DNA of 64,000 nt from Eledone cirrhosa (Eukaryota): positions 5,270,001 to 5,334,000 of the forward strand of contig OZ024750.1 of assembly GCA_964016885.1 (NCBI GenBank), written 5' to 3'. This document shows, piece after piece, positions 5,272 through 57,960 of this stretch. Every line of letters starts with the position of its first letter. Within the stretch, counting starts at the first letter, position 1. A model generated the notes under the pieces. That model did no database searches, was not told where the DNA came from, and saw only the letters and a list, made by a program, of their open reading frames with translations. Both the position numbers and the translations under genes were made by a program.

Positions 5272-6396
5272 GGACTGTCTGGCGGGTTTTCTACAGCTGG
5301 ATGCCCTTCCTAACACCAACCACATTTACAGTGTGGGGCTGGGAGGTTTTTACCGTGTTGCCTACACGGCCACATTTACAGCGTGGACTGTCTGGCGGGT
5401 TTTCTACAGCTGGATGCCCTTCCTAACACCAACCACATTTACAGTGTGGGGCTGGGAGGTTTTTACCGTGTTGCCTACACGGCCACATTACAGCGTGGAC
5501 TGTCTGGCTGGTTTTCTACAGCTGGATGCCCTTCCTAACACCAACCACATTTACAGTGTGGGGCTGGGAGGTTTTTACCGTGTTGCCTACACGGCCACAT
5601 TACAGCGTGGACTGTCTGGCGGGTTTTCTACAGCTGGATGCCCTTCCTAACACCAACCACATTTACAGTGTGGGGCTGGGAGGTTTTTACCGTGTTGCCT
5701 ACACGGCCACATTTACAGCGTGGACTGTCTGGCGGGTTTTCTACAGCTGGATGCCCTTCCTAACACCAACCACATTTACAGTGTGGGGCTGGGAGGTTTT
5801 TACCGTGTTGCCTACACGGCCACATTTACAGCGTGGACTGTCTGGCGGGTTTTCTACAGCTGGATGCCCTTCCTAACACCAACCACATTTACAGTGTGGG
5901 GCTGGGAGCTTTTTACTGTGTTGCCTACACGGCCACATTACAGCGTGGACTGTCTGGCGGGTTTTCTACAGTTGGATGCCCTTCCTAACACCAACCACAT
6001 TTACAGTGTGGGGCTGGGAGGTTTTTACCGTGTTGCCTACACGGCCACATTACAGCGTGGACTGTCTGGCGGGTTTTCTACAGTTGGATGCCCTTCCTAA
6101 CACCAACCACATTTACAGTGTGGGGCTGGGAGGTTTTTACCGTGTTGCCTACACGGCCACATTACAGCGTGGACTGTCTGGCGGGTTTTCTACAGTTGGA
6201 TGCCCTTCCTAACACCAACCACATTTACAGTGTGGGGCTGGGAGGTTTTTACCGTGTTGCCTACACGGCCACATTTACAGCGTGGACTGTCTGGCGGGTT
6301 TTCTACAGCTGGATGCCCTTCCTAACACCAACCACATTTACAGTGTGGGTCTGGGAGGTTTTTACCGTGTTGCCTACACGGCCACATTTACAGCGT
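5272..6396. repeat. 112/113-bp tandem array, 10 units, expanded inside a (CAT)n-tailed dispersed repeat
   Basis: GGACTGTCTGGC unit starts at 5272, 5385, 5497, 5609, 5722, 5835, 5947, 6059, 6171, 6284. A single-unit version of the same element lies at about 49922-50170. Confidence 0.95.
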
Positions 6397-7156
6397 GGAC
6401 TGTGTGTTTTTTTGTCGTGACACCTACACGATCTCATTTGTTTCGGCCTGGATGGTGTGGGCCCAACATAACTTTACATTGAAAGGGGCGGTGTGGGTGG
6501 GGTGGAGGTGGTGGGACGGGGGTGTGTTTTGATAGAGATGCCTACTGACTGTAGTAGGTTTTTACTTTGTATTCATTAATTCAAAATATTTATAGTATCT
6601 TTACTAGAGAACAGATTTTTGTGAACATTTGCACCAAACACCAGCACAAACACATACAAGAAGGGTCCCTAAAATCACCACTCACCTCCAAGCAAACCAA
6701 ATTACCTGTAGTATATTTCCATTTAGTGTGGCAACTTTTCCTCTGCTCCAGTCTTCCAGCTGTAGAGGTCCACCAACAACACCATCACCAGATGGCAGCA
6801 GTGGTAGTGGTGGGCCAGGGTTGGTATTGCCCTCATCTGCTCTCCGTTGAGGTTCTGGCAACAAAGATCTTTCTAGGTTTGAACCAGAAACGGTTGTATC
6901 CATTTCAAATGCCTTCTCAAACTCTCTGAAGATTTCTTCGCGATCCAGTGCACAGATGTTAGCAGAAATGGATGCATTCTGGTGTGCAGAGCCAACATGG
7001 TGCACAATGTTGTTGGGTTGTATAATCTGTGCAGTGGTGTCGTGGTGCACAATATTGTTGACTGCAGTGTTGTCGTGATGCACAGTGTGTGCAGTGTTAT
7101 TGTGCATAATGGTAGGGCACGCTGTGTTCTGTGCAGTGTCCTGATGTAGAGCAGTG

Positions 7157-7479: not shown

Positions 7480-7650
7480 TTGTGGTGGCAATTTGCTTGT
7501 AAATGTTGGACCAACTCACGATGGCCGTATTCCACCAATTTTTGAGGAGCGCCTCTTACAGTTTGGACAATGGTTAAAACTTAATGGAGAAGCAATTTAT
7601 GCTTCCAAACCCTGGAGTCATCAAAATGATACAATTACTCCAAAAGTCTG
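7480..7650 (+). CDS. FUCA: Alpha-L-fucosidase exon
   Basis: ttgcag| ... |gtacgt; [56 protein letters not shown](W); phase 2 to 2. Confidence 0.96.
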
Positions 7651-7734
7651 GTACGTTAAAACAGCTAGTTCTTTCATTGCATTAAAACATGTAGATCAGT
7701 GTTTCTCAAGATGAGCCATGGCAATATTTTATAA

Positions 7735-8235: not shown

Positions 8236-8350
8236 GATGGGGTGTGACAATATTTTGATGAGGTGTGACAATATTTTGATGGGGTGTGGCTCAGGAATTC
8301 AGAATAAGTCATATATACTATGCTATAAGCATTGCTATACTATGAGGCCT

Positions 8351-9762
8351 TAACTGATATAAATTGTAGATCTAACTGATATAGATTATAGCTGTAACTG
8401 ATATAGATTATAGCTGTAACTGATATAAATTGTAGCTGTAACTGATATAAATTGTAGCTGTAACTGATATAGATTATAGCTGTAACTGATATAAATTATA
8501 GCTGTAACTGATATAGATTATAGCTGTAACTGATATAAATTGTAGCTGTAACTGATATAAATTGTAGATGTAACTGATATAAATTATAGCTGTAACTTAT
8601 ATAAATTATAGCTGTAACTGGTATAGATTATAGCTGTAACTGATATAAATTATAGATGTAACTGGTATAAATTGTAGATGTAACTGATATAAATTATAGC
8701 TGTAACTCATAAATTATAGCTGTAACTGGTATGAATTATAGCTGTAACTGGTATAAATTATAGATGTAACTGATATAAATTGTAGATGTAACTGGTATAA
8801 ATTGTAGATGTAACTTATATAAATCATAGCTGTAACTGGTATAAATTATAGATGTAACTGGTATAAATTGTAGATGTAACTTATATAAATTATAGCTGTA
8901 ACTGGTATAGATTGTAACTGTAACTGATATAAATTATAGCTGTAACTGGTATAGATTGTAACTGTAACTGATATGAATTATAGCTGTAACTGGTATAGAT
9001 TGTAACTGTAACTGATATAAATTATAGCTGTAACTGGTATAAATTATAGATGTAACTGATATAAATTATAGCTGTAACTCATATAAATTATAGCTGTAAC
9101 TGGTATGAATTATAGTTGTAACTGGTATAGATTGTAACTGTAACTGATATGAATTATAGTTGTAACTGATATAGATTATAGCTGTAACTGATATAGATTA
9201 TAGCTGTAACTGGTATAAATTATAGATGTAACTGATATAAATTATAGCTGTAACTGATATAGATTATAGCTGTAACTGATATAGATTATAGTTGTAACTG
9301 ATATAGATTATAGCTGTAACTGATATAGATTATAGCTGTAACTGATATAGATTATAGCTGTAACTGATATAGATTATAGTTGTAACTGATATAGATTATA
9401 GCTGTAACTGATATAGATTATAGCTGTAACTGGTATAAATTATAGCTGTAACTGATATAAATTATAGCTGTAACTGGTATAGATTGTAACTGTAACTGAT
9501 ATAAATTATAGCTGTAACTGGTATAGATTGTAACTGTAACTGATATGAATTATAGCTGTAACTGGTATAGATTGTAACTGTAACTGATATAAATTATAGC
9601 TGTAACTGGTATAAATTATAGATGTAACTGATATAAATTATAGCTGTAACTGGTATAGATTGTAGATGTAACTGATATAAATTATAGCTGTAACTGGTAT
9701 AAATTATAGCTGTAACTGGTATAAATTATAGCTGTAACTGGTATAGATTATAGCTGTAACTG
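8351..9762. repeat. 22-bp minisatellite (TAACTGATATAAATTATAGCTG)n, about 64 copies, intronic
   Basis: TAACTG recurs every 22 bp. Confidence 0.95.
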
Positions 9763-9920: not shown

Positions 9921-10173
9921 GTACACAACAAACAAAGTGAAGAATGGCACAGCTGTTTATGCTATAGTCCTTGAGAAACCAAAGCAACGTTTTATCCAGC
10001 TTGGGGCAATTCAGCATTCACCATCTATTAGTGTCTCTTTATTGGGTTATAAGGGAATCATCCAAATTAAAGAGATGCAATCAGGGATCATGTTATTGTT
10101 GCCAAGTATTGAGGTGAATCAGATGCCAAGTAAACGAGCTTGGGTATTTAGATTTATGGGAATTACATTCTAA
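9921..10173 (+). CDS. FUCA: Alpha-L-fucosidase terminal coding exon (C-terminal beta domain)
   Basis: ctgtag|; YTTNKVKNGTAVYAIVLEKP...KRAWVFRFMGITF, TAA at 10171-10173. Candidate poly(A) signal AATAAA at 11754. Confidence 0.92.
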
Positions 10174-12670: not shown

Positions 12671-13738
12671 TATCTCTCCCCATCCGGCCCTCTATTGGAT
12701 AAATCACTAAACAATAAAAAATAAAGGGGAACAACTTTATCATCAATTTATCTAGTTGCTTTACGTTTTACATGAGACTTAGGTGAGTTGATAAAGATTT
12801 ACTTTAAATTTGTTATAATGTAAGTAAATAATAGAATTATACCCCACTTGGACAATATAGTGATAATATAGGAATTTTTAAAAAATCAACGTAGGAGAAC
12901 AGGCAATCTTGTCCATTATGTGCCTACTTTAAATGATTTACGATGATGGAGCATGTAAAAAACAAATAAGTTTCATTTTATTATAGATACATGTAAATTA
13001 ACTAAATATTTAATTGTTTTGTAATACTCCTACTTCTAAAATAAATTTATTTGCAGTATCGTTACCTATAAATGTTTTTTTAAAGAAATGCTTAATGTTT
13101 TAAACGGGAGGCGGCGACTTATCGTTACAACGCCGAATAGAATGCTTTGCAGTATTGGTTCAAATGCTAGCGAGGTTAGTCTTACCTTTCCTCCTTTCGA
13201 GATCAATAAAAAAAGGTAGGGCGATATCCAATTTTACCGCCTGATTTGCTGCTGATGCTGCTTACTTGGTGACTTGCTGCTTGTTGCTTATGTTATTTCA
13301 CCTTTAATAATATCTGCATTGAAATGACCGGCAGGGAGCTAGTTATGCCAATTCGTGTAAAATACCCAAAGATTATGTATATTAATATAAGTTTCACTTT
13401 ATGAATTTCAGTTTAAAATCAATTATAAGATAATCACCGACAGAGGACTAATATAAGTGAGAAAGTGATACTTATAATTTTGGGTTATTTTCCACAATAA
13501 AGTGAAACTTATATTAATATACATAATCTTTGGGTATTTTCAACGAATTGGCGTAACTAGCTCCCTGCCGGTCATTTCAATGCAGATATTATTAAAGGTG
13601 AAATAACATAGTTCTGTTATCTTATAATTGATTTTAAACTGAAATTCATTCGTTCGAAAACATTCATTGAACACTGTACCACCAACCAGATTGCTGTTAT
13701 AAATTACAACCTTGTTTTGGAATTACTGAATAAAGAAA

Positions 13739-14562
13739 ATGCCTGGACGTCCACCTGCACCAATTTTCATTGTTGAAAATGTTAATTCATCACAGCAGAC
13801 GTTAAATATGGATTTGAAAATGACGGAACTGGCGATTTTAACTGCAAACAAACTCAGTATTATTGAATTTATGGCTCGGAACCGATTAGTTTCAAACACT
13901 ATGAACTGTCCTTCATGTAATATTTCCTGTTCGTTTGTAAGTTACAAAGAAGCAATCGACCAATTTCGATGGAAATGTAAGGTATGCAGTTTTACCAAAT
14001 CTGTCCGTTCTGGGTCATTTTTTTTTTGAAGCCACTTAGATTTACATCAAATGAGTTATATGATTTACTTCTGGTCAATTGGGTCCGAAAATATTCTTAT
14101 TGCTGACGAGATTCGGTGTAGTGAAAACACCATTACTGACTGGTGCAACTTTTTACGGGACGGGACGTGTGCAGTGAATGGGTGGAGCGAAACCCATCAA
14201 TACTCGGTGGAATGGATGATGCCGGGGTCCCAATAGTTGTACAAATCGATGAAAGTAAATACTTTCATCGAAAGTACGCTCGTGAGACCTGGCATGGAGG
14301 CCATTGTGTCATTGGTGGGATCGATACCAATAATCCCAGAAAAATTATTCTTGAAGAAGTCCCAGACCGCACTGCTGAGACCCTGCTACCCATTATTGAA
14401 AACCATGTGCTGAGTGGATCCATGATACATACGGACCGATGGCGTGCGTACAATCGCATACGACATATGCGTGGTAATCATTCACTAAATTTTGTTGATC
14501 CGGTATCAGGAACGCATACCCAACACATTGAAGGACTCTGGTCTCATGCCAAAAATAAATAA
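13739..14562 (+). pseudogene. Merlin/IS1595-family DDE transposase, frameshifted
   Basis: Zn ribbon CPSC...WKCKVC, SVRSGSFF, TITDWCNFLRD, VQIDESKYFHRKY, VPDRTAETLLPII, IHTDRWRAY, NHSLNFVDP, HTQHIEGLWSHAK. Frameshifts at the T-run near 14018-14027 and a 5-bp CGGGA duplication near 14156-14165; premature TAA at 14560. Confidence 0.9.
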
Positions 14563-14924
14563 ATGGCACTAGCCGACCCATGTTTCAGTCATATTTGAAT
14601 GAATTGATGTGGCGGTGGTGAAATGACAGCTTTATGAGTGGAGGCGGTAGATGTTTCTCAAAGATTTTAAACTGTATATCGGAACAATATATTGTTTAAA
14701 GAAATATTTTTTTTCTTTTTTATTGTTGCGATATAGTTTAAAATTTGCTTCCAAAAGTTCAAAAAGATATAAATCTTTAAAAAAATTATAATAATTCTTT
14801 ATTATTATTTTCTTTTTCTGTAAATAATTATTTTTCTATATATCTCAAACCCTGCCAAACACCACATCTGTCCATCTGTAAATTTAAATGACTGTTCTTT
14901 CATACTTATCCTCTTCAACTACAC

Positions 14925-15060
14925 ATGGATATTTGTCTTGCTGTGGAGAAGGAATTAGAAACAGTTTTATCAAAATTCACTGCTATTCGGGAACATACAA
15001 AGCGAACTTTGGGTGACATACCAACTTCTGTTGATAATATAAGGAAAGAAATCAGTGAAG
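14925..15060 (+). pseudogene. RMND5: Captured first coding exon of RMND5/GID2 (CTLH E3 ligase subunit), isolated fragment
   Basis: MDICLAVEKELETVLSKFTAIREHTKRTLGDIPTSVDNIRKEISE resembles the RMND5A N-terminus (MDQCVTVERELEKVLHKF..., recalled from memory) and ends at AG|GTATTT. No further RMND5 exons are seen in the window. Confidence 0.75.
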
Positions 15061-15147
15061 GTATTTATTATATTTTGATTGCATTTTTATTACAACCACT
15101 AATACTTACTATTATCGGTAGAGCGTCGGAGAGCAATGTTTGTGACA

Positions 15148-15900
15148 TATATTCTACAGAGGGCTGGTGGCTAGCAGGAGCGACGACACTCTTGGCGATT
15201 CCCTAGGCATGGAGGAAAATGAACTGGCCAGCCTGTTCGGTAGGACATTTGGCCCGGGACCCATGGACAACTTCCAGGGGTCCTTGGCCTGGCAGTTCTA
15301 CCGAGGGGCCCTGCCCGTTCGGGAAAGGCTCTACAGACACGGATTCCGGGACGGAAACCCCTTGGAAAAGAAATGTCCCAGATGCGTTTGCAACGAGGAA
15401 ACCGTTAAGCACGCATTAGTACAATGTCCTGGCATTGCCAATCTGTGGGGATATGTCGCTGGCCAACAAATTAATCCTCTTCTTCAGATACCACTTCGAA
15501 AGAAGGATCAAAGTGGAGAGAAAGGCACTCAGTCCCAGCCAATTCCATGAAAGATGGGTGAAAGTAGCAATAATGGCCCGTGTAAGTGGGCCATCTCTCT
15601 ATATCGGCTTGTACAGGTAAGAGAAGAAGGGAGCACCCCCTCTCTCTGTGCTCCCTGGCAGAAAGGTCGCACACTTTCTACGGGGGTGTGTGTGACCCCA
15701 AAAGGCTGCCTCTCTATTGAGGACTTAATTTTTTATATTCCTTTTTAATCACTCATTAAATGTTTGTACTTGATTTTTGTAAAAACTTCCCCCGCCTAAT
15801 GCCCCAGTGGCAAATAAATCGCCCCCAAAAAAAAAAAAAAAACGTGTCAAATAAAGAAATCTATGCCCCAGTGGCAAATAAATCGCAAAAAAAAAAAAAA
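15148..15900 (+). mobile_element. Tx1/L1-clade LINE 3' fragment (zf-RVT region) with poly(A) end, nested in the Merlin element
   Basis: LAWQFYRGALPVRERLYRHG...KKCPRCVCNEETVKHALVQCP; homologous to 29421-30062 with an internal deletion. Confidence 0.85.
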
Positions 15901-17279
15901 ACCAAGAAACTAATAAAAACGTTGCAAATAAATAAATCTATATTTCTTTTAATGGCTAAAAAAAAGGGAATGTAAATTTGTTGGAATAGCCTCATACAGT
16001 GAAGTAGGTAAGTAGCACAAGTTAAGCAACAAGCAGCAAGTCACCAAGTAAGCAGCAACTACAGCACGTAAGCATCAACAGCAGCAATTTGGGCGGTAAA
16101 ATTGGATATCGCCAAAAGTAGCAGTCCTGGGGGGAATATTCTTCCTATATATTCTTTTCTCTCCTCTAGAAGATATCGGCTATATTCAGACCTGGGGCTG
16201 GAGATTGGCCCCACCACGTGCTCAAGAGTGGGTGTACGATGGCCCTACCGCCCTATCAGGAGTTACGGTTTCCTATATATATATATATATGGTCACCCGA
16301 CCTGGCATTGCCCACAACAGGACAACCCGTCTAACCCATGCTAGCCTGGAAGAATGGACGTAAAACGGTGATGATGATAATAATTGTTTTTACCTTTTGA
16401 CACAAGCCCAGCGCATTACTGGTACTTTATTTTATCGACCCCGTAAGGATGAAAGGCAAAGTTAACCTCGGCGGGATTTGAACTCAGAATGGCAAGGGCC
16501 GTAACTCTATGTGTCAAAGCATGGCGTCCGACCCTCTACCGATACTGCCAATCCACATGTTTTAGCGGACAAAATTTATGCAGTTTAATATAGCATATTT
16601 AATCTACACATCCCTTGCGTTAGGTGGGAAATAATTGTCTTTCCTTGTTTTGTTTGTTTATTTGTTTTATTTATTTATTTATTTATTTGTGGGGTTTCTG
16701 GACCTCTTTGATTCTTGGAGTCGACTTTATTCCAGGACAAAAGAAACCGTAACCCTAAACATAAAAAAGTCAAGGAGTTGATGGGAGGGCTATAGTCGCC
16801 TAAGAGGAGGACTTCTTATGAAGTTAGCAGATGGTCTGCCAGAACACATTATTGCTTGTACCATAAGTGCAAGAAGAAGGACTTATTTCCTAGCTAAGCT
16901 TCATAAGTCTCCTTTGATTAGATGACGTATTTGACCACTTTATGGAATCAACAGGTCCTCTTGCCACACCAATCTCATACAGTTTATCAGTATAAAAAAT
17001 GGAGTATAATATCCACTGTTAAATCTCTACTTTTTAACTATCCTCTATATCTTATACTGTTTCTTTACTATTTCAGAATATAACATGACATGAGGGAATG
17101 TTTTACATCAGATATATCATCAATATTTGTCATCTTTTAAAGACTACAGGAAGATGTTGTACACAACAAATATAACCTGGTTTTATATAAATCAAGTAAA
17201 ATTATTGAGAAATATTTCTTATGAACTGAGATTTAGAGCAACATTTCTTGAGAACATGTATTGAGAAAGGAAAAGAATC

Positions 17280-19361
17280 ATGCAACACTGTGACCTGACT
17301 ACTCATGAGCATACCCATACAGGAGAGAAACCATATCACTGTGATATTTGTGGTAAACCTTTCTCTGTAGGAATTAGTTTAATAAGACACAAACATACTC
17401 ATACAGGAGAGAAACCTTATAACTGTGATATCTGTGGTAGATCATTCACTCAAAGAAGTACTTTAAATAATCATAAACGTATTCATACAGGAGAGAAACC
17501 ATACCACTGTGATATTTGTGGTAAATCTTTCTCTGAAATAAGTAGCTTATCAAAACACAGACGTACCCATACAGGAGAGAAACCATATCACTGTGATATC
17601 TGTGGTAAATCTTTCACTGAAAGAAGTAACGTAGCAAAACACAAACGTTCCCATACAGGAGAAAAACCATATCACTGTAATATTTGTGGTAAACCTTTCA
17701 CTGAAAAAAGTAGCTTAACAAATCACAAACTTACTCATACAGGAGAGAAACCATATCAGTGTGATATTTGTGGCAAATCTTTCTCTAGAGGAAATAACTT
17801 AACTTCTCACAAACGTACCCATTCAGGAGAGAAACCCTATCACTGTGATATCTGTGGGATATCATATTCTCAGAAAAGTTGCTTAACTGATCACAGACGT
17901 ACTCATACCGGAGAGGAACCCTATCACTGTGAAATATGTGGTAAATCTTTCTCTCGAAGAGGTACTTTATATGTTCACAAACGTATTCATATAGGAAAGA
18001 AACTCTATGAGTGTGATATCTGTGGTAAATCATTCTCTAAAATTTATCGTCTAAATAGCCACAAACAAATTCATACAGGAGAGAAACTATTTCACTGTGA
18101 TATCTGTGGTAAATCATTTTCTGTAGAAGGTCACTTAAATACTCATAAATCTACCCATACAGTAGAGAAACCATATCACTGTGATATTTGTGGTAAATCA
18201 TTTTCACACCAATGTAACCTCATTACTCATGAACGTACCCATACAGGAGAGAAACCATTTCACTGTGATATTTGTGGTAAATCTTTCCTTGGAGGAAGTA
18301 GCTTAACAAAACACAAACGTACTCATACAGGAGAGAAACCATATCACTGTGATATTTGTGGTAAATCATTTTCACACCAATGTAACCTCATTACTCATGA
18401 ACGTACCCATACAGGAGAGAAACCATTTCACTGTGATATTTGTGGTAAATCTTTCCTTGGAGGAAGTAGCTTAACAAAACACAAACGTACTCATACAGGA
18501 GAGAAACCATATCACTGTGATATTTGTGATAAATCTTTCTCTGTAGGAATTAGTTTAATAAGACACAAACGTGCTCATACAGGAGAGAAACCTTATAACT
18601 GTGATATCTGTGGTAGATCATTCACTCGAAGAGGTACCTTAAATAATCATAAACGTATTCATACAGGAGAGAAACCATATCACTGTGACATCTGTGGTAA
18701 ATCTTTCTCTGAAAAAAGTAGCTTAACAAAACACAAACGTACCCATACAGGAGAGAAACCATATCACTGTGACATCTGTGGTAAATCTTTCTCTGAAGTA
18801 AGTAGCTTAACAAAACACAAACGTACCCATACAGGAGAGAAACCATATCACTGTAATATTTGTGGTAAATCTTTCCTCGAAGGAAGTAGCTTAACGAATC
18901 ACAAACTTACTCATACAGGAGAGAAACCATATCAGTGTGATATTTGTGGCAAATCTTTCTCTAGAGGAAATAACTTAACTTCTCACAAACGTACCCATTC
19001 AGGAGAGAAACCCTATCACTGTGATATCTGTGGGATATCATATTCTCAGAAAAGTTGCTTAACTGATCACAGACGTACTCATACAGGAGAGGAACCGTAT
19101 CAGTGTGAAATATGTGGTAAATCTTTCTCTCGAAGAGGTACTTTATATGCTCACAAACGTATTCATATAGGAAAGAAACTATATGAGTGTGATATCTGTG
19201 GTAAATCATTCTCTAAAATTTGTCACCTAACTAGCCACAAACAAATTCATACAGGAGAGAAACTATTTCACTGCGATATCTGTGGTAAATCATTTTCTGT
19301 AGAAGGTCACTTAAATACTCATAAATGTACCCATACAGGAGAGAAAAACCTATCACTCTGA
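17280..19361 (+). CDS. Tandem C2H2 zinc-finger protein, 693 aa, 24 complete fingers, no effector domain seen
   Basis: 28-aa repeats CxxCxxxFx8Hx3H with TGEKP linkers. Upstream splice acceptor tttcag| at 17076/17077 implies a separate 5'UTR exon. Confidence 0.93.
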
Positions 19362-21056: not shown

Positions 21057-21550
21057 TCAGTGTTCTTTATAAGATTTAATAATGGAATCCCATCTTTTTT
21101 CAATTTCATCTCTTGGTTTCCTCCAAATCCTGTGAAGAAGAGGCCAACCAGTGGCAGCTGTGTCCAGTGGGTAATCATTTGTGCGGTCTTTTAGATAGGT
21201 GTACCAGCCAATTGCTAAAGACTGGGAAATGCGACTACATATTAACACATGCAAAGCATTACGTTCTGCTGCATTCATGTGAAATTCTGATAAATACCCA
21301 GATAAAATATATCCACCTACATCTATTGGATCAACTAATTTGTCCTTAATCATCATGTAACATATGGCTATAGCAACATCAAAAATAAAATATGAACAAC
21401 TGGCATCAGCAAAATCAATGATTCCTGATATAACAAAGTCTGACTTTGTCTTCTGTGCAGTTATATACTGATGATCGGAACTTGGTTCAGCAGTTGGAGT
21501 GCGTTCCTTAACTAAAACATTGAAATCATTGAGGTCACCATGGATTTGAC
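21057..21550 (-). CDS. HYKK: Hydroxylysine kinase-like (AGPHD1, APH/choline-kinase fold), terminal exon
   Basis: ttacag|; (G)QIHGDLNDFNVLV...SGIIDFADASCSYFIFDVAIAICYMM...SRISQSLAIG...NDYPLDTAATGWPLL; stop TGA at 21057. Confidence 0.9.
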
Positions 21551-22554
21551 CTGTAAGAAATAATTGGATGTTAGCTTGTATTTTAACATTAACAAAAGAA
21601 CAAAATTTGAAATAGAAAGGAAAGGAGCTGGTCCATTCAGATTAGACTAAACAAAAGAATGGTTCCTTTAGTCCTTTCATTGCTGATAATGATTTCTACT
21701 TTAGACACAAGGCCAGTAATTTAGGGAGAGGGGAAAGTCGATTAAATCGACCCCAGTGCATTACTGGTGTTTTATTTTATCGACCCCTGTAAGGATGAAA
21801 GGCAAAGCTAACCTCTGCAGGATTTGAACTCAGAACGCAAAGGGCCAAAACTATGCCACGAAGCATGGCGTCCGACGCTCTACCAATACTGTCAATCCAC
21901 CACCCTTCCATTGCTAATAATATAAATATGTTTATCAGATATTATGGCAGAAAAAAGAAGGATTTGAACTCAGAATGCATAGGGATAGCTCAGATAATGA
22001 CTTAATAATTCCACCACCCCTGGATTGCTATTTTTTTTATCAAATCCAAAAGGATGAGAAGCAAAGTTTACCTCAGAATTTGAATTAGTGTGCAAGGAAC
22101 CAAAACATGGAGGAATTTAATTTGATGCCCTAACAACTCTGCCATTTCACTGTTGTTTATGGTTTAGAAAGAGGAGGAGGTGCAGCAGCCATCAGTCTTT
22201 TAGGGACTTCCAAAACTGGAGAGGTTAAAGAGGAAGAAACTACGATACATAGCTTACTGTACAATGGACCTTCATCAGTTTCAATGATGAGTATTTTAAG
22301 GATTCAATCAATGGAACAGCCTGCTCATGAAATTAATGTGTAAGTGGCTGAGCATTCCACAAACGTGTAATTTAAGAGGTGAGAAAGTTTGCAGGAGCAG
22401 GAAGAAAGCTACTTAAAGGTTCCATTTGCTTTCCCAATGAGTCAACTATATCAATCTCTACAGACTTAGAAAGCCTTTTAAAATGTTTTGGGGGATTGTC
22501 ACTCATTTATTTGACTGACCTGCTAAAAAGTAAAGAAATATTTGGTAATTTTAC

Positions 22555-28510: not shown

Positions 28511-29132
28511 TTAGCTCAAATTTAGACAATTAATTTTCCAAAGTGATCGCGCCAACAATACATTCAAAAATAGCTAAGAATCGTGACGTGGCAGCGGTCA
28601 AGTTAGAAAGGATGTGATTAGTTGCTTACGGCTGGTAGGTTTATTGCTAGAAAGCGCAGCCCAATACAGCCAAATTGTATCTGAACCTAACGGGAGATTA
28701 TTACATATAAAGGTTTACATATATATAAATAAAGTCATAGATATATATGCATTTTGCATATATATATAGTGAAGGGGTGTGGCTGAGTGGTTAGAGAATT
28801 GGATTCACAATCTTGAGATTGTGAGTTAGATTCCTGGACCGGGCGATGCGTTATGTCTTTGAGCAAGACACTTTATTTCACGTTGCTCCTTCTACCTGGA
28901 GTTGCGACCGATAGATAGTACTAGCAATTGGAAAGACCAACGGAAACATTGTTCCCTCGGTCCGATTTGACGAAAGTCGATCGATCCTTTAATATATATA
29001 TTATCTATGATTTCTCCCGAATGAAACAGTTCTAGTCCTGTAGAAGCCATTTCTATATTAAATATATATCATCTATCTAGATATATTCCCCGCTCTCTCT
29101 CTCTATCTATCTATCTAGCTATCTATATACTA

Positions 29133-30301
29133 AGAAGATCCATCTGCTGCCAACACCCTTCTAACGGAGGGCTGGGGATGCCGTGGTTGACGATGCGCAA
29201 ACACGCGCTCAGGCTGCGGCATCTCTACGTATTCCTCACCGGACAACCGGTGTGGGCCCCGTTCGTGAGGCGAGCCTTCCCACGACTCGTCTCGCTGACC
29301 GAGCTGCAGTCCTGGGTCAAGCAGAGACCGAGGAAAATGGGCGACTGGCACATCGAATGTGCTCAGGCGCTCACAGCCCTCTGGCAGGCGGACCCGGCGA
29401 TCAGTGGAGACTCCACTTCGTCATTCTATAGAGGGTTGGTCCGCAGCAAGTGCGACGACGCGCTCGGTGAAACTCTGGGCGTGGAGGAAGATGAACTGGC
29501 CAGTCTGTTCGGTAGGACCTTCCGCCCGGGACCGATGGACAACTTCCAAAAGTCCCTGGCCTGGCAGTGCTACCGAGGAGCTCTACCAGTTCGAGACAAG
29601 CTCTACAGACATGGGCGCCCGGGCAGGGACCCTGCAAAAAAGATCTGTCCGAGGTGCGTGCGAGACGAAGAAACCGTCGCGCACGCATTCATACACTGCC
29701 CGGGCGTCACTGACCTGTGGGGCTATGTGGAACGACTATTGTCGCGGGTGGGACCAATCCAGTTGACCACCGAGTCCATTGTCATGATCAAACCGCCACC
29801 CTCCTTCAAAAACGAAGGAGAGGCGGTTTTCCTTTGTGTGATAGCTATGGCGAAAGAGGTTGTATGGTGGACAAGGTTGAAAGGGCTGAGGTCAGACACC
29901 TTTCTCTCCGGCCAACAACTGATTCTTTTTTTCAAATACCACTTTGGAAGAAGAATCAGGATGGAGAGAGAGGTGCTGTACCCCAGCAAGTTTTATGAAA
30001 GGTGGGTGAAAGTGGCGAGAATGGCCCGAGTGAATGGGCCTTCTCTCTATATCAGCCTGTAGGTTGAGGAAAAGGAGGAGGAGAGGAAAGGAGTACAAGC
30101 TCTTCGTACTCCTGGAGATGAGGGTTGCACATTTTTTTCGGGGGTCTGTGTTACCCATATAAACTGTCTCCCTCTATTGGGGAAAATCGACTAACTTTTA
30201 AATTCCATCTGTGATAACATTTTACACGTTTTTATTGTATGTAAACTTCCCCCTTTGTATTTGTCCCCTTCTTTTGTGCCCCTGTGGCTAATAAAGAAAT
30301 A
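29133..30301 (+). mobile_element. 5'-truncated Tx1/L1-clade LINE (C-terminal RT-associated and zf-RVT region)
   Basis: GC-rich open frame NGGLGMP...WQCYRGALPVRDKLYRHG...ICPRCVRDEETVAHAFIHCP to the stop at 30062, a 3'UTR ending AATAAAGAAATA, and a 13-bp TSD TATCTATATACTA at 29120-29132 and 30302-30314. Confidence 0.9.
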
Positions 30302-54563: not shown

Positions 54564-57459
54564 CTACAACTCGTCAAAGGTGTATGTATAGTACATAGAA
54601 TAATACACAAATGTCAGGGAAGTACATGTGTGTATGTGTGAGCTGTAGTGTTGGCGGATCTCGGGAAGCATGGAGGCCTGAAAGGATGCAGTGTCTCGAC
54701 AGCTAACAACTGATGCAGGTAGTTTGTTCCATGCTTCAGCAACTCTGAGCGTGAAAAAATGTTTCCGAAAGTCATGGGAACTGTGCTGTTTTCTTACTTT
54801 GTGGGCATGTCCACATGTGTTAGACACATGGAAATCAAAAAGGTACTCAGGGTTGTTGTTGGCAACATGGTTAACAATTTTGTGGGTGTTTACCAAGTCA
54901 GTTGCCAGGCGTCGGAGCTTCAATGAATCCATGCCCAGGGAAGCAAGGCGCTCAGAGTATGGTAGATGCCTGATGGAGAGTATTCGCTTGGTTGCACGTC
55001 TCTGAACAGTTTCCAGGCGGTCAATGTTCTGAGCAAGATAGGGGTTCCAGACTGGTGATGCAAATTCTAAGTGTGGTCGCACCATAGCTGTATACAGCCT
55101 TAAATAGATATCTGGAGAGCGGCTGACAAAGGTCTTGCTGAGTGATGCTAAGACACCCTCGGCCCTCTTGACAATTTTAGAGACGTGCCTCGTCCAACGC
55201 AAATCGCTGCTGACCGTAATGCCCAGGTCACGTTCACAGGAAGACTTCTTGATATTAGTGCTGTGGAGGGAGTATGTGGACGCTGGGTTTTTACTCCCAA
55301 AATGCATGGTGGTGCACTTGTCCACAGCTAGCTTGAGTTGCCAGTCTGAGATCCATTGTTGCATTGTGTCCAGGTCAGACTGCAAGCAAGATCTATAGTG
55401 TTCAGGATTTGTCCTTTTTATCTCAAGGTACAGCTTGATGTCGTCTGCGTACTTTAGTACTGTGGCATTCCTTAAGTTGGCATCTATGTCATTAATATAT
55501 GCCACAAACAAAAGGGGGCCAAGAACAGATCCCTGTGGTACACCAGATGACATCTCATATGGTGAGGAATGCTGTCCCAGAACCGTGACTACCTCTCTTC
55601 GACTGAGAATGAAGGACTTCAACCAGTTAAAAAGATCATCCTTCACACCCATTGCAGAGAGTTTTGCCATAAGCCTTTTGTGTGGCACAGAATTGAAGGC
55701 CTTCGCAAAGTCAAGGTAAACAACATCCACCCATGAGCCGCCATCAGTGATCCGGGTGATGTCCTCAAGAAACTCTATAAGTTGATCACAGTAGCTGGAG
55801 TTGGGGATAAATCCAAATTGCGAGGACCGGATAAGTCTGTGAGAGCTCCAGAAGTTCCAAAGTGTTTCTCTGACACAGGATTCCATCAGTTTGGCGATGC
55901 AACTAGTAAGACTGACTGGATGATAGTTCACAGGTGATGTGCAGTCACCCTTTTTGAACAGAGGAATGACACTGGCAGTTTTCCACTGTTCTGGAGTAGC
56001 ACTGTTGTTCAGACAGAATTGGAAGAAGCGTGATAACTGGTGTAGAAGGAAGTACCCACCACATTTAAGAAGCAGGTACGTAACACCATCAAGACCAGGA
56101 GAGGCATGGTTGCGTTTATTTTTTAGGTGACGTCGCAGCATTGCAGGTGTAAATTCCATGGTTGTAATAGAATCCGGTGTCATAGGTGGTGGAGATGGTA
56201 CACTCTGGTCTTCAATAGTTAAAATGCCTGCATAGCATTCAGCAATGAGCTCTGCACATTCCTTGGGGTCATCAGTAACCTGGCTTGTGTGGGGATTGCG
56301 AAGAGGACCAACTGGAGAGTGAGGCCTCTGCTTTGAGTGAACATACTTCCAGAACACCTTACTGTCAGGGCTGGTTGCTATGCGCTGCTCAAATTGAAGC
56401 ACTGCCTTTTTTGTCACCTGTTTGAGGTGGTTGGATGATCTATTTCGCCTCTTCCTATTAATGTCTGATTTGTGAAGTTTGTACTCACGTTCAGCATTGC
56501 GCCGTTTTTTTCTGGCAAGACGGACTGCTGCAGTCTCCCAAATTGTGCTTTTGGGATGTTTTTTCCGCTTACGTGGCACCGATGCTGCACATGCTGTCCA
56601 TATTGAGCTCAGGATGTTCTGGAGTACAGTGTTGACATCTCCAGAGTCGTAGAACTCAAGCCAGTTTGGCCGTTGCAACTCGGTGCAGTAACAGTTCCAG
56701 TCTGCTTTATTCCAGTCAAAGTAAGCAGCTTGGAGATGGTTGTGGTTCTTGTTACTGCCCATGAGGGATAGATTGGCAATGATCATAGCATGATCAGAGT
56801 CACCTAAAGGTTCCTCAGCAGTAACACTAATGACCGTTTCAGGAGTAGTGGTGAAGAGTAGGTCCAAAGTGTTGTCACCTCTCGTTGGGGAGGTGACCAC
56901 CTGGGACCAACTCGAGTCCAGCACTAGCTCAAGGAATTCATTTGCACTTGGCAACCAACGAAAGGTTTCCCAGTCAATCTCAGGGTGATTGAAGTCACCT
57001 GCAATGAAAACATAAGTGGCTGTCTTCCTGGTAGCAGCTCTGAGGATATCACAAAGTTGAGTGTCCTGATGGTAATTTGGGGGACGGTAAACGACTCCAA
57101 GTAACAGTGTTGACATGGTCATACGTATATCGCAGAAAAAAAACTTCCTGCTGTGATTGGTTCAAATGAGCACAAGGAATTGCCGACCGAACGTAGACCA
57201 TTACACCACCACCACCACGATTAATGCGGTCTTTACGAAACAGGTTGTAGCCAGTCATGCTGAAAACCCCATCACAGAGTAAGGGATGTGCCCAAGTTTC
57301 TGTGACTGTAATGAAGTCAGGGTTGATACTTTTGACGTAGGAGTCAAAAAGATGAATCTTATTGCATAGACTACGTGCATTCAAGGACAACAATTTGTAC
57401 CTTGATTCCAGTCTATGATTATGTGCAGGGGATGGCAGGTTGTTCTGATTTAGTTTCCC
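54564..57459 (-). CDS. LINE ORF2: APE endonuclease + reverse transcriptase, with one +1 frameshift in an 8-T run (57136-57143)
   Basis: SLNARSL, VTETW, GVVYRPP, GDFNHP, PTRGDNTLDL, SDH (APE); YLDFAKAF, SGVPQGSVLGPLLF, KYADD (RT); RPHLEFASPVWNPY and FFTLRVAEAWNKLP (CR1-like C-terminus). Confidence 0.88.
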
Positions 57460-57880
57460 AGAGTTTTTTCAGTTTCTTTATTGTCAGTTGTTGTGGGTAC
57501 AGTGTTTTCAGACCAGCTGGTGTCTCTTTTCCATGATTCGCCAGCCTTAACAAACTTCCATATCTGCCCATCATCTCGTAGGCTGAAGCTTTCATGTTCT
57601 GCCGAGCTGCGGTTTAAGGAAGTTGCAGCACGCAACTTTGGGCGGACATCAGGTGGAAGACCAGGGCGTGTTCGGAAAGCAATCCGACTTTCACGCCTAG
57701 CTTTATCAGAGGCTACAAGGTATGAACGTGCCTCAGTTGAGTTTGAAAACGACAGTCTAATTAACCTGGGTTTCAGGCCTGGTCGGCCAAGGCGTAGAGC
57801 ATCCTTTGCGGGAGCACAGCCCAGGTCTTTGGATGAACTGGCAGCAAATGCCTGAAGATCAACTATGTCTTCTGGTACAC
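57450..57880 (-). CDS. LINE ORF1 C-terminal part (RRM/CTD-like)
   Basis: VPEDIVDL...ALRLGRPGLKPRLIRLSF...RTRPGLPPDVR...KTLGN*; pattern typical of CR1/L2 ORF1. Confidence 0.65.
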
Positions 57881-57960
57881 ATTTATGTAGCTTTCTTCTT
57901 TTATTATTGATTTTTAATGGAGAAAAGACATGTTTGAACAAAATTATTCACTGGAAAGTG

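Follow-up and report, generated by a model that had tools for sequence, protein, structure and literature searches.

How does the first coding exon of a host gene come to lie between the ends of a DNA transposon, and is it put to use there? The question is raised by a 64,000-nucleotide stretch of the Eledone cirrhosa genome (C10:5270001-5334000 in the 3.0-Gb assembly; hereafter the window, whose positions serve as coordinates unless a contig or locus is named), in which a Merlin transposon of 2,894 bp (13220-16113) contains a piece of the gene RMND5. The best explanation, to which we assign a probability of about 80%, is that this element is one copy of a Merlin family carrying, behind its transposase, approximately 370 bp from the 5' end of host RMND5 and the tail of a long interspersed nuclear element (LINE), that this cargo has been moved to dozens of sites, and that its exon is likely a non-functional passenger.

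A single Merlin element in the window

The element ends in 22-bp terminal inverted repeats (TIRs; left, 13220-13241, + strand, beginning GG; right, 16092-16113, - strand). They are perfect over exactly that length and continue as imperfect subterminal repeats to approximately 70-90 bp, the extensions measuring 52 and 44 nt and the left one reaching ~13290. Outside them lie 8-bp target site duplications (TSDs) with one mismatch, AAAGGTAG at 13212-13219 and AAAAGTAG at 16114-16121. Both features were re-found where an initial annotation of this DNA had placed them, and its view that the two TIRs bound one element, rather than belonging to independent insertions, held. The left TSD is the terminus of a host repeat resembling a short interspersed nuclear element (SINE), which the element splits. 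This left flank is a high-copy repeat, and four other copies of it run on into sequence like the right flank (by eye; clearest at L062). Put together, the two flanks make up one host repeat, which shows the 2,894 bp to be a single insertion. The same TIR-bounded unit recurs elsewhere with different TSDs.

Merlin elements are defined by TIRs of 24-462 bp beginning 5'-GG, TSDs of 8 or 9 bp and a DDE_Tnp_IS1595 transposase, in the available passages of PMC8101967. The window TIRs have the GG start and 22 perfect bp plus the imperfect extensions, and among 35 TIR pairings 24 have perfect 8-bp TSDs, 5 have one mismatch and 6 are poor, a 9-bp TSD fitting none. The transposase gene (13739-14699, + strand) gives a Pfam DDE_Tnp_IS1595 match at 14140-14559 (E = 2.6e-13; a second match has E = 5.8e-12), and the D, D and E residues are readable in the translations within QIDES, HTD and HIEG. 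Pfam match, catalytic residues, TIRs and TSD thus agree on the Merlin identity, with a remnant of an IS1595-type DDE transposase, that had been proposed initially. The gene is disrupted by stops at 14029 and 14562 and by a frameshift near 14140-14165. Its old stop (14697-14699) was placed by eye using the C-terminus of a sister family, whose transposase frame of 321 aa includes that part. An N-terminal CxxC..CxxC stretch is found in the window (13895-13990) and in the frame of L046; in the window Zn_ribbon_IS1595 is matched weakly, at E = 0.0021 and with 18.5 bits where the cut-off is 25.4, and no zinc-ribbon domain was listed for the frame of L042 at E 0.01. According to the available passages of PMC8101967, Merlin transposases usually lack an N-terminal Zn_Tnp_IS1595 domain, its presence being called exceptional, and Merlin is abundant in Octopus bimaculoides.

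Within the left arm, ahead of the transposase gene, internal inverted repeats occupy 13289-13649 (13289-13402 against 13497-13610, 97%; 13401-13433 against 13617-13649, 100%). The right arm (15901-16091, + strand) consists of an AT-rich part and subterminal repeats, and for 15901-16020 comparison against shuffles separated neither a Merlin-arm nor a host-intron origin. Many other Merlin families, at ~50% protein identity, have open frames of ~330 codons without stops (for example at C12:9010545, C28:35298662 and C2:63552702); judged from these frames, they may possibly have been active recently.

The cargo and its parental locus

Between the transposase gene and the right arm lies the host sequence, at ~14785-15150. 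Its exon (14925-15060, + strand) runs for 136 nt from an ATG to a phase-1 donor (45 codons + 1 nt), as the initial annotation had it. Thirty-eight of its 45 residues equal those of host RMND5 exon 1, and the two exons share the donor GAAG/GTATTT. An HMMER search with the 45-residue peptide returned 77 relatives at E <= 0.001; a short-word search for full-length relatives found none, which is a weak test. The peptide alone matches human RMND5A in PDB weakly (E = 0.22). Its identity therefore rests on P0069, a full-length relative of the peptide that matches human RMND5A at E = 1.2e-79, and on the host locus; together these uphold the earlier reading by eye of an RMND5 N-terminus.

The parental locus was looked for in the genome and found. 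The host RMND5 gene was located with a CTLH search and with tblastn: it lies at C5:79536336-79558761, where seven exons are matched, residues 1-45 falling in the first; exon 2 is single-copy (one genome match; 15 candidates scored). The window exon is thus not the true exon 1, which lies on C5 with six further exon matches downstream. By BLASTN, window 14771-15150 aligns with C5:79536166-79536556 at 86.6% identity including gaps. The cargo comprises ~140 nt before the ATG (14785-14924, likely 5' untranslated region (UTR)), the exon, and 90 nt of intron 1 (15061-15150) that terminate in the 5' part of a SINE continuing in the host intron. The part described earlier as intron-like is therefore genuine RMND5 intron 1 up to 15150. 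Since intron 1 and the start of an intronic SINE are retained, retrocopying is excluded, and the capture took place at the DNA level as had been supposed.

Host homology stops at 15150 and LINE homology starts at 15151. At this right junction GACAT is present in both partners with a 2-nt offset, a near-microhomology. The left junction lies in AT-rich DNA between ~14745 and 14785, where it cannot be fixed to the base, and adjoins a local fold-back that is ~75% self-complementary (14664-14744). These features are consistent with template switching, without proving it. The LINE 3' fragment (15151-15900, + strand) shows a zf-RVT domain (Pfam, E = 3.8e-7), an internal deletion, poly(A) and a duplicated tail. 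It is 83-88% identical to free LINE copies, and its assignment as a LINE, which does not extend to a clade, is based on that identity and on zf-RVT. In nearly all family members examined the LINE piece belongs to the unit that is transposed. The window has a further LINE 3' frame, akin to this fragment, at 29025-30062 (+ strand).

Spread and age of the family

The cargo has been transposed repeatedly. An exact pattern for the intact exon has 66 matches in the genome: apart from the host's own there are 65 copies, distributed over 46 loci and 13 contigs. The LINE piece is present at all 45 exon loci besides the window. A TIR pair encloses the exon at 28 of these 45 and is missing from the 10 kb fetched at the other 17; the paired loci show a perfect 8-bp TSD in 19 cases, one mismatch in 5 and at least 3 mismatches in 4. 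Partial RMND5 pieces occur at 15 further fetched loci and at 8 additional ones, so that the cargo loci number at least ~69. Exact matches to two TIR variants number 10 and 139. Collecting copies with this TIR and scoring them for cargo bore out that many carry it; the high copy number and the palindromes described below had not been foreseen. Some family members are nested or adjacent (L039, L044, L005, L067), several with their own 8-bp TSDs.

All this cargo has one origin. Among 28 cargo copies from 25 loci, mean divergence is 1.5% mutually and 6.9% from the host, and in 340 positions 20 near-fixed differences from the host are common to them. The low mutual as against the higher host divergence, together with the shared differences, indicates one capture, a quiet period and a later burst. 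Transposase DNA at least 87% identical was found at 18 loci (40 of 187 candidates scored); 17 were fetched, of which 16 have cargo, the 17th being a fragment that ends ahead of it. Same-family loci without an intact exon retain the LINE piece in 37 of 40 cases and an RMND5 piece in 15 of 40, so the sampled family descends from the composite. In the sister family (~70% identity) cargo was found at 0 of 9 loci, and its TIRs are different, with 8-bp TSDs of their own where both ends were found. Deletion derivatives are common: the segment 15116-15295 is kept in 4 of 40 scored matches, the window copy among them, and deleted in the others. The window copy is therefore close to the founding layout.

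Many further derivatives are palindromic, the right arm having replaced the left so that two exons face outward, and more than one intact exon is present at 17 of the 46 loci. In nine chosen elements the arms are 89-98% identical over 790-930 bp. A wholly palindromic copy of 3.8 kb contains two back-to-back transposase genes (L041:2046-5873), and one palindrome folds at its centre into a hairpin of 200 bp, as the duplication by itself entails. In place of the left arm, an inverted right-arm copy was noted in L041, L042, L054 and L055, and in L046 and L047 of the sister family. Arm copying is thus seen without cargo too, both in sister elements and in short cargo-less derivatives.

A plausible course of events would begin when a copy bearing a transposase took up the cargo once, probably through a template switch as it was replicated or a gap in it repaired, a proposal that draws on the fold-back at the left junction and the near-microhomology at the right. 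The composite would have continued transposing with its own family's transposase. Later, one arm may have been copied over the other to give non-autonomous palindromes of 1.0-1.9 kb with cargo in both arms, while the cargo would have drifted free of selection.

Is the captured exon used?

Six changes are fixed in the cargo exon, and all are non-synonymous (P = 0.23, compatible with neutrality). At 5 of these 6 sites the outgroup peptide P0002 has the host residue, so the changes arose on the cargo branch. Of the private changes in 16 exon copies, 4 are synonymous and 8 non-synonymous, a stop being one of the latter. Neither the fixed nor the private exon changes give a sign of purifying selection, and positive selection, considered in view of the 6:0 ratio, is unproven at P = 0.23. 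No AG acceptor occurs in the 159 nt before the ATG, and the cargo exon is for that reason not spliceable as an internal exon. CCAAT-like and ETS-like motifs upstream of the host exon are absent from the captured piece; these motifs are presumably promoter-like.

Several observations weigh against the explanation as set out here. No complete transposase frame was found at 13 family loci, the longest having 286 aa and missing the C-terminal part. For the capture mechanism there are just the weak signals at the junctions. No cargo-free progenitor with the same TIRs was found among the transposase copies scored as close (40 of 187 candidates scored), and the junctions therefore rest on the host and on the 70% sister family. 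Most intact exons stay open and keep their donor (15 of 16 examined have no stop), although this is expected, the burst being young. Finally, in the 10 kb centred on the element a zinc-finger exon is found at 6 of 45 exon loci compared with 0 of 35 controls (Fisher p = 0.033; controls were loci shifted by 7 Mb, 10 loci having none), an excess that would not be expected of passengers inserted purely at random.

The last of these points could be given a wider meaning, in which the Merlin family would be a two-way exon cassette, its palindromes landing or persisting preferentially 5' of the expanded C2H2 genes with their outward-facing RMND5 exons as alternative first exons or upstream open reading frames (ORFs), and their hairpin transcripts giving rise to small RNAs that match the mRNA of RMND5 (GID/CTLH E3 ligase). 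We regard this as unlikely, and its two components can be weighed separately.

In the first, the cargo would act in cis by supplying a first exon or upstream ORF that moves with the element, its RMND5 donor being spliced into a zinc-finger acceptor so as to alter the 5' UTR, start or translation of the neighbouring gene; palindromic copies would present a sense exon in either insertion orientation. The window itself suggests such an arrangement. A conserved splice acceptor and a C2H2 zinc-finger frame (17057-19361, + strand) lie 1 kb downstream of the element, on the same strand and not part of it; the acceptor AG ends at 17076 and the frame (17265-19361, 698 codons) has exact repeats within it. 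Many zinc-finger paralogues share the conserved acceptor region, and the donor is the host's own. At all six loci the element is on the 5' side of the zinc-finger feature (in five it lies 5' of the conserved acceptor, in the sixth it sits where a short array of fingers has its 5' edge), no such exon was near 20 distant-Merlin loci, and chimeric transcripts are reported for Pack-TIRs, transposons with captured host sequence within their TIRs (PMC8277862, in the passages available).

However, the test was post hoc, having been devised after 4 of the 6 loci had been noticed. Same-family loci without an intact exon are near zinc-finger exons in 2 of 40 cases, and exon and exon-less loci are indistinguishable (p = 0.27), so the association is equally well explained if the family as such is biased in where it inserts or is retained. 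Taken against all controls the family gives p = 0.022; the bias looks real for the family and is not creditable to the cargo. In 2 of the 6 cases the zinc-finger gene and the intact exon run on opposite strands. The element brings neither promoter nor acceptor, and predicted splicing in the window from 15060 to the acceptor at 17076 would yield a 50-residue peptide, with a stop five codons on and before the zinc-finger frame. A conserved first exon of the zinc-finger gene was searched for and none was found. A role of the cargo in cis is thus unlikely. That the element could export a ready-made ATG exon, as first suggested, stands in the sense of DNA, since the exon is present with its donor at 46 loci; a useful fusion is what the anatomy argues against.

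Other candidates examined around this zinc-finger gene were set aside. An RMND5-zinc-finger fusion protein is ruled out by stop codons, and three other pyrimidine-rich acceptors would give 64-109 residues of repeat-derived sequence. The segment 13100-13175 was considered as the gene's first exon and dropped, being a high-copy repeat. A higher CpG content of the flanks disappeared once element-containing DNA was excluded.

In the second component, the palindromes would act in trans: read-through could produce a hairpin RNA with RMND5 exon 1 that, once diced or edited, would dampen RMND5 mRNA or mark the family for silencing. The loci with more than one intact exon, the long and similar palindrome arms and the central hairpin described above are all compatible with this, as is the number of 21-mers that a typical cargo has in common with the host gene, 82 of 340. 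Nevertheless, arm duplication is general in these elements and occurs without cargo, so no selective explanation is needed, and we consider such an effect quite improbable.

It is hardly credible that the RMND5 piece and the LINE tail entered a dead Merlin copy separately, by gap filling or segmental duplication, the copies then being duplications of flanking DNA without transposition: most animal Pack-TIRs arise independently of transposition (PMC8277862, in the passages available) and some tandem or nested arrangements exist here (L067, L039, L044), but the flanks differ from copy to copy, each with an 8-bp TSD of its own at the TIRs, and the left flank of the window element has no close second copy, so that this route is refuted for the spread by the distinct TSDs and is possible for the first capture step only.

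Relation to known capture systems

The passenger interpretation places the element beside transposons already known to capture host DNA. In the available parts of PMC8277862 (Tan et al. 2021), 370 animal Pack-TIRs are described, mostly hAT and Tc/mariner. Four of them (1.4%) are multicopy, with an example of three copies, and the multicopy examples include Ssk-FB4 and Pack-hAT-N8_XT, which has a piece of the CAPSL 5' UTR. The Merlin family likewise has host sequence within its TIRs, a parent locus, a retained intron and several copies with distinct TSDs, and it resembles the multicopy Pack-TIRs of that source in having a short host fragment of known parent from a gene's 5' end, with a template-switch origin proposed. 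In contrast to the three-copy example, an intact exon is found here at 46 loci, ten times the published copy number. Unlike the Pack-TIRs described there, the cargo stands beside a transposase gene, the whole TIR family appears to descend from the composite, and palindromes double the cargo. Ssk-FB4, as presented there, is nearly a whole expressed gene, whereas here a single exon is involved, known from sequence alone.

With respect to Merlin/IS1016 as described in the passages of PMC8101967, the family agrees in its GG TIRs, 8-bp TSDs and DDE_Tnp_IS1595 domain with D, D and E, and differs by its host-gene cargo, which those passages do not mention. In PMC8277862 the word Merlin is absent from the main text and occurs in 12 supplementary files only as a column head. 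A repeat annotation of Octopus vulgaris, in the part available, names two Merlin families of recent activity and does not treat capture. The initial annotation was not aware of host capture as a standard feature of Merlin, and our literature searches brought up no Merlin element carrying host cargo, most subscription papers, Repbase entries and other supplements having been outside the search; what it had not taken into account is that capture by animal DNA transposons was already described, as Pack-TIRs, in the accessible text of PMC8277862.

A fungal case is close in another respect. In Pseudocercospora fijiensis a hAT element amplified histone H3 into hundreds of inert copies (PMC6710886, in the passages available), so that there too housekeeping-gene sequence was captured by a transposase-bearing element; that case is fungal, concerns hAT, and its coding sequence was made inactive through repeat-induced point mutation. 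Plant Pack-MULE and Pack-TYPE elements share DNA-level capture of gene fragments between TIRs and internal deletion series, and are described as non-autonomous and of other superfamilies, in the parts available (PMC8903248, PMC6431247). Capture of host sequence by TIR transposons is therefore known; what is new, as far as our searches reach, is that it occurs in Merlin, at this copy number, with the cargo fixed throughout the family and doubled in palindromes. In plants, small RNAs from Pack-MULEs silence the parent gene.

Host-gene capture is thus extended to Merlin, with the captured piece now a standing part of a whole animal transposon family. The series from host to long copies, deletion derivatives and palindromes constitutes a natural record of capture and doubling by a DNA transposon. 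There is also a practical side, since the 65 exon copies are liable to be mis-called as RMND5 fragments, or repeat masking to hide the real exon 1. If the zinc-finger bias holds and any copy is spliced, the transposon would be linked to the regulation of an expanded zinc-finger family.

Other features of the window

The element is flanked by two + strand features, the end of an alpha-L-fucosidase gene and the C2H2 zinc-finger frame. The former's final two coding exons (7481-7651 and 9922-10173, +) match Pfam Alpha_L_fucos and Fucosidase_C, and the intron separating them contains a long tandem repeat (~8350-9760). Another long tandem-repeat array, at 5400-6420, yields repetitive open frames. 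On the - strand, a 194-codon frame at 21057-21641 has a phosphotransferase (APH) match and is presumably the last exon of a hydroxylysine-kinase-like gene, the name being a guess. A long reverse-transcriptase frame with further frames upstream occupies 54564-57947 (-).

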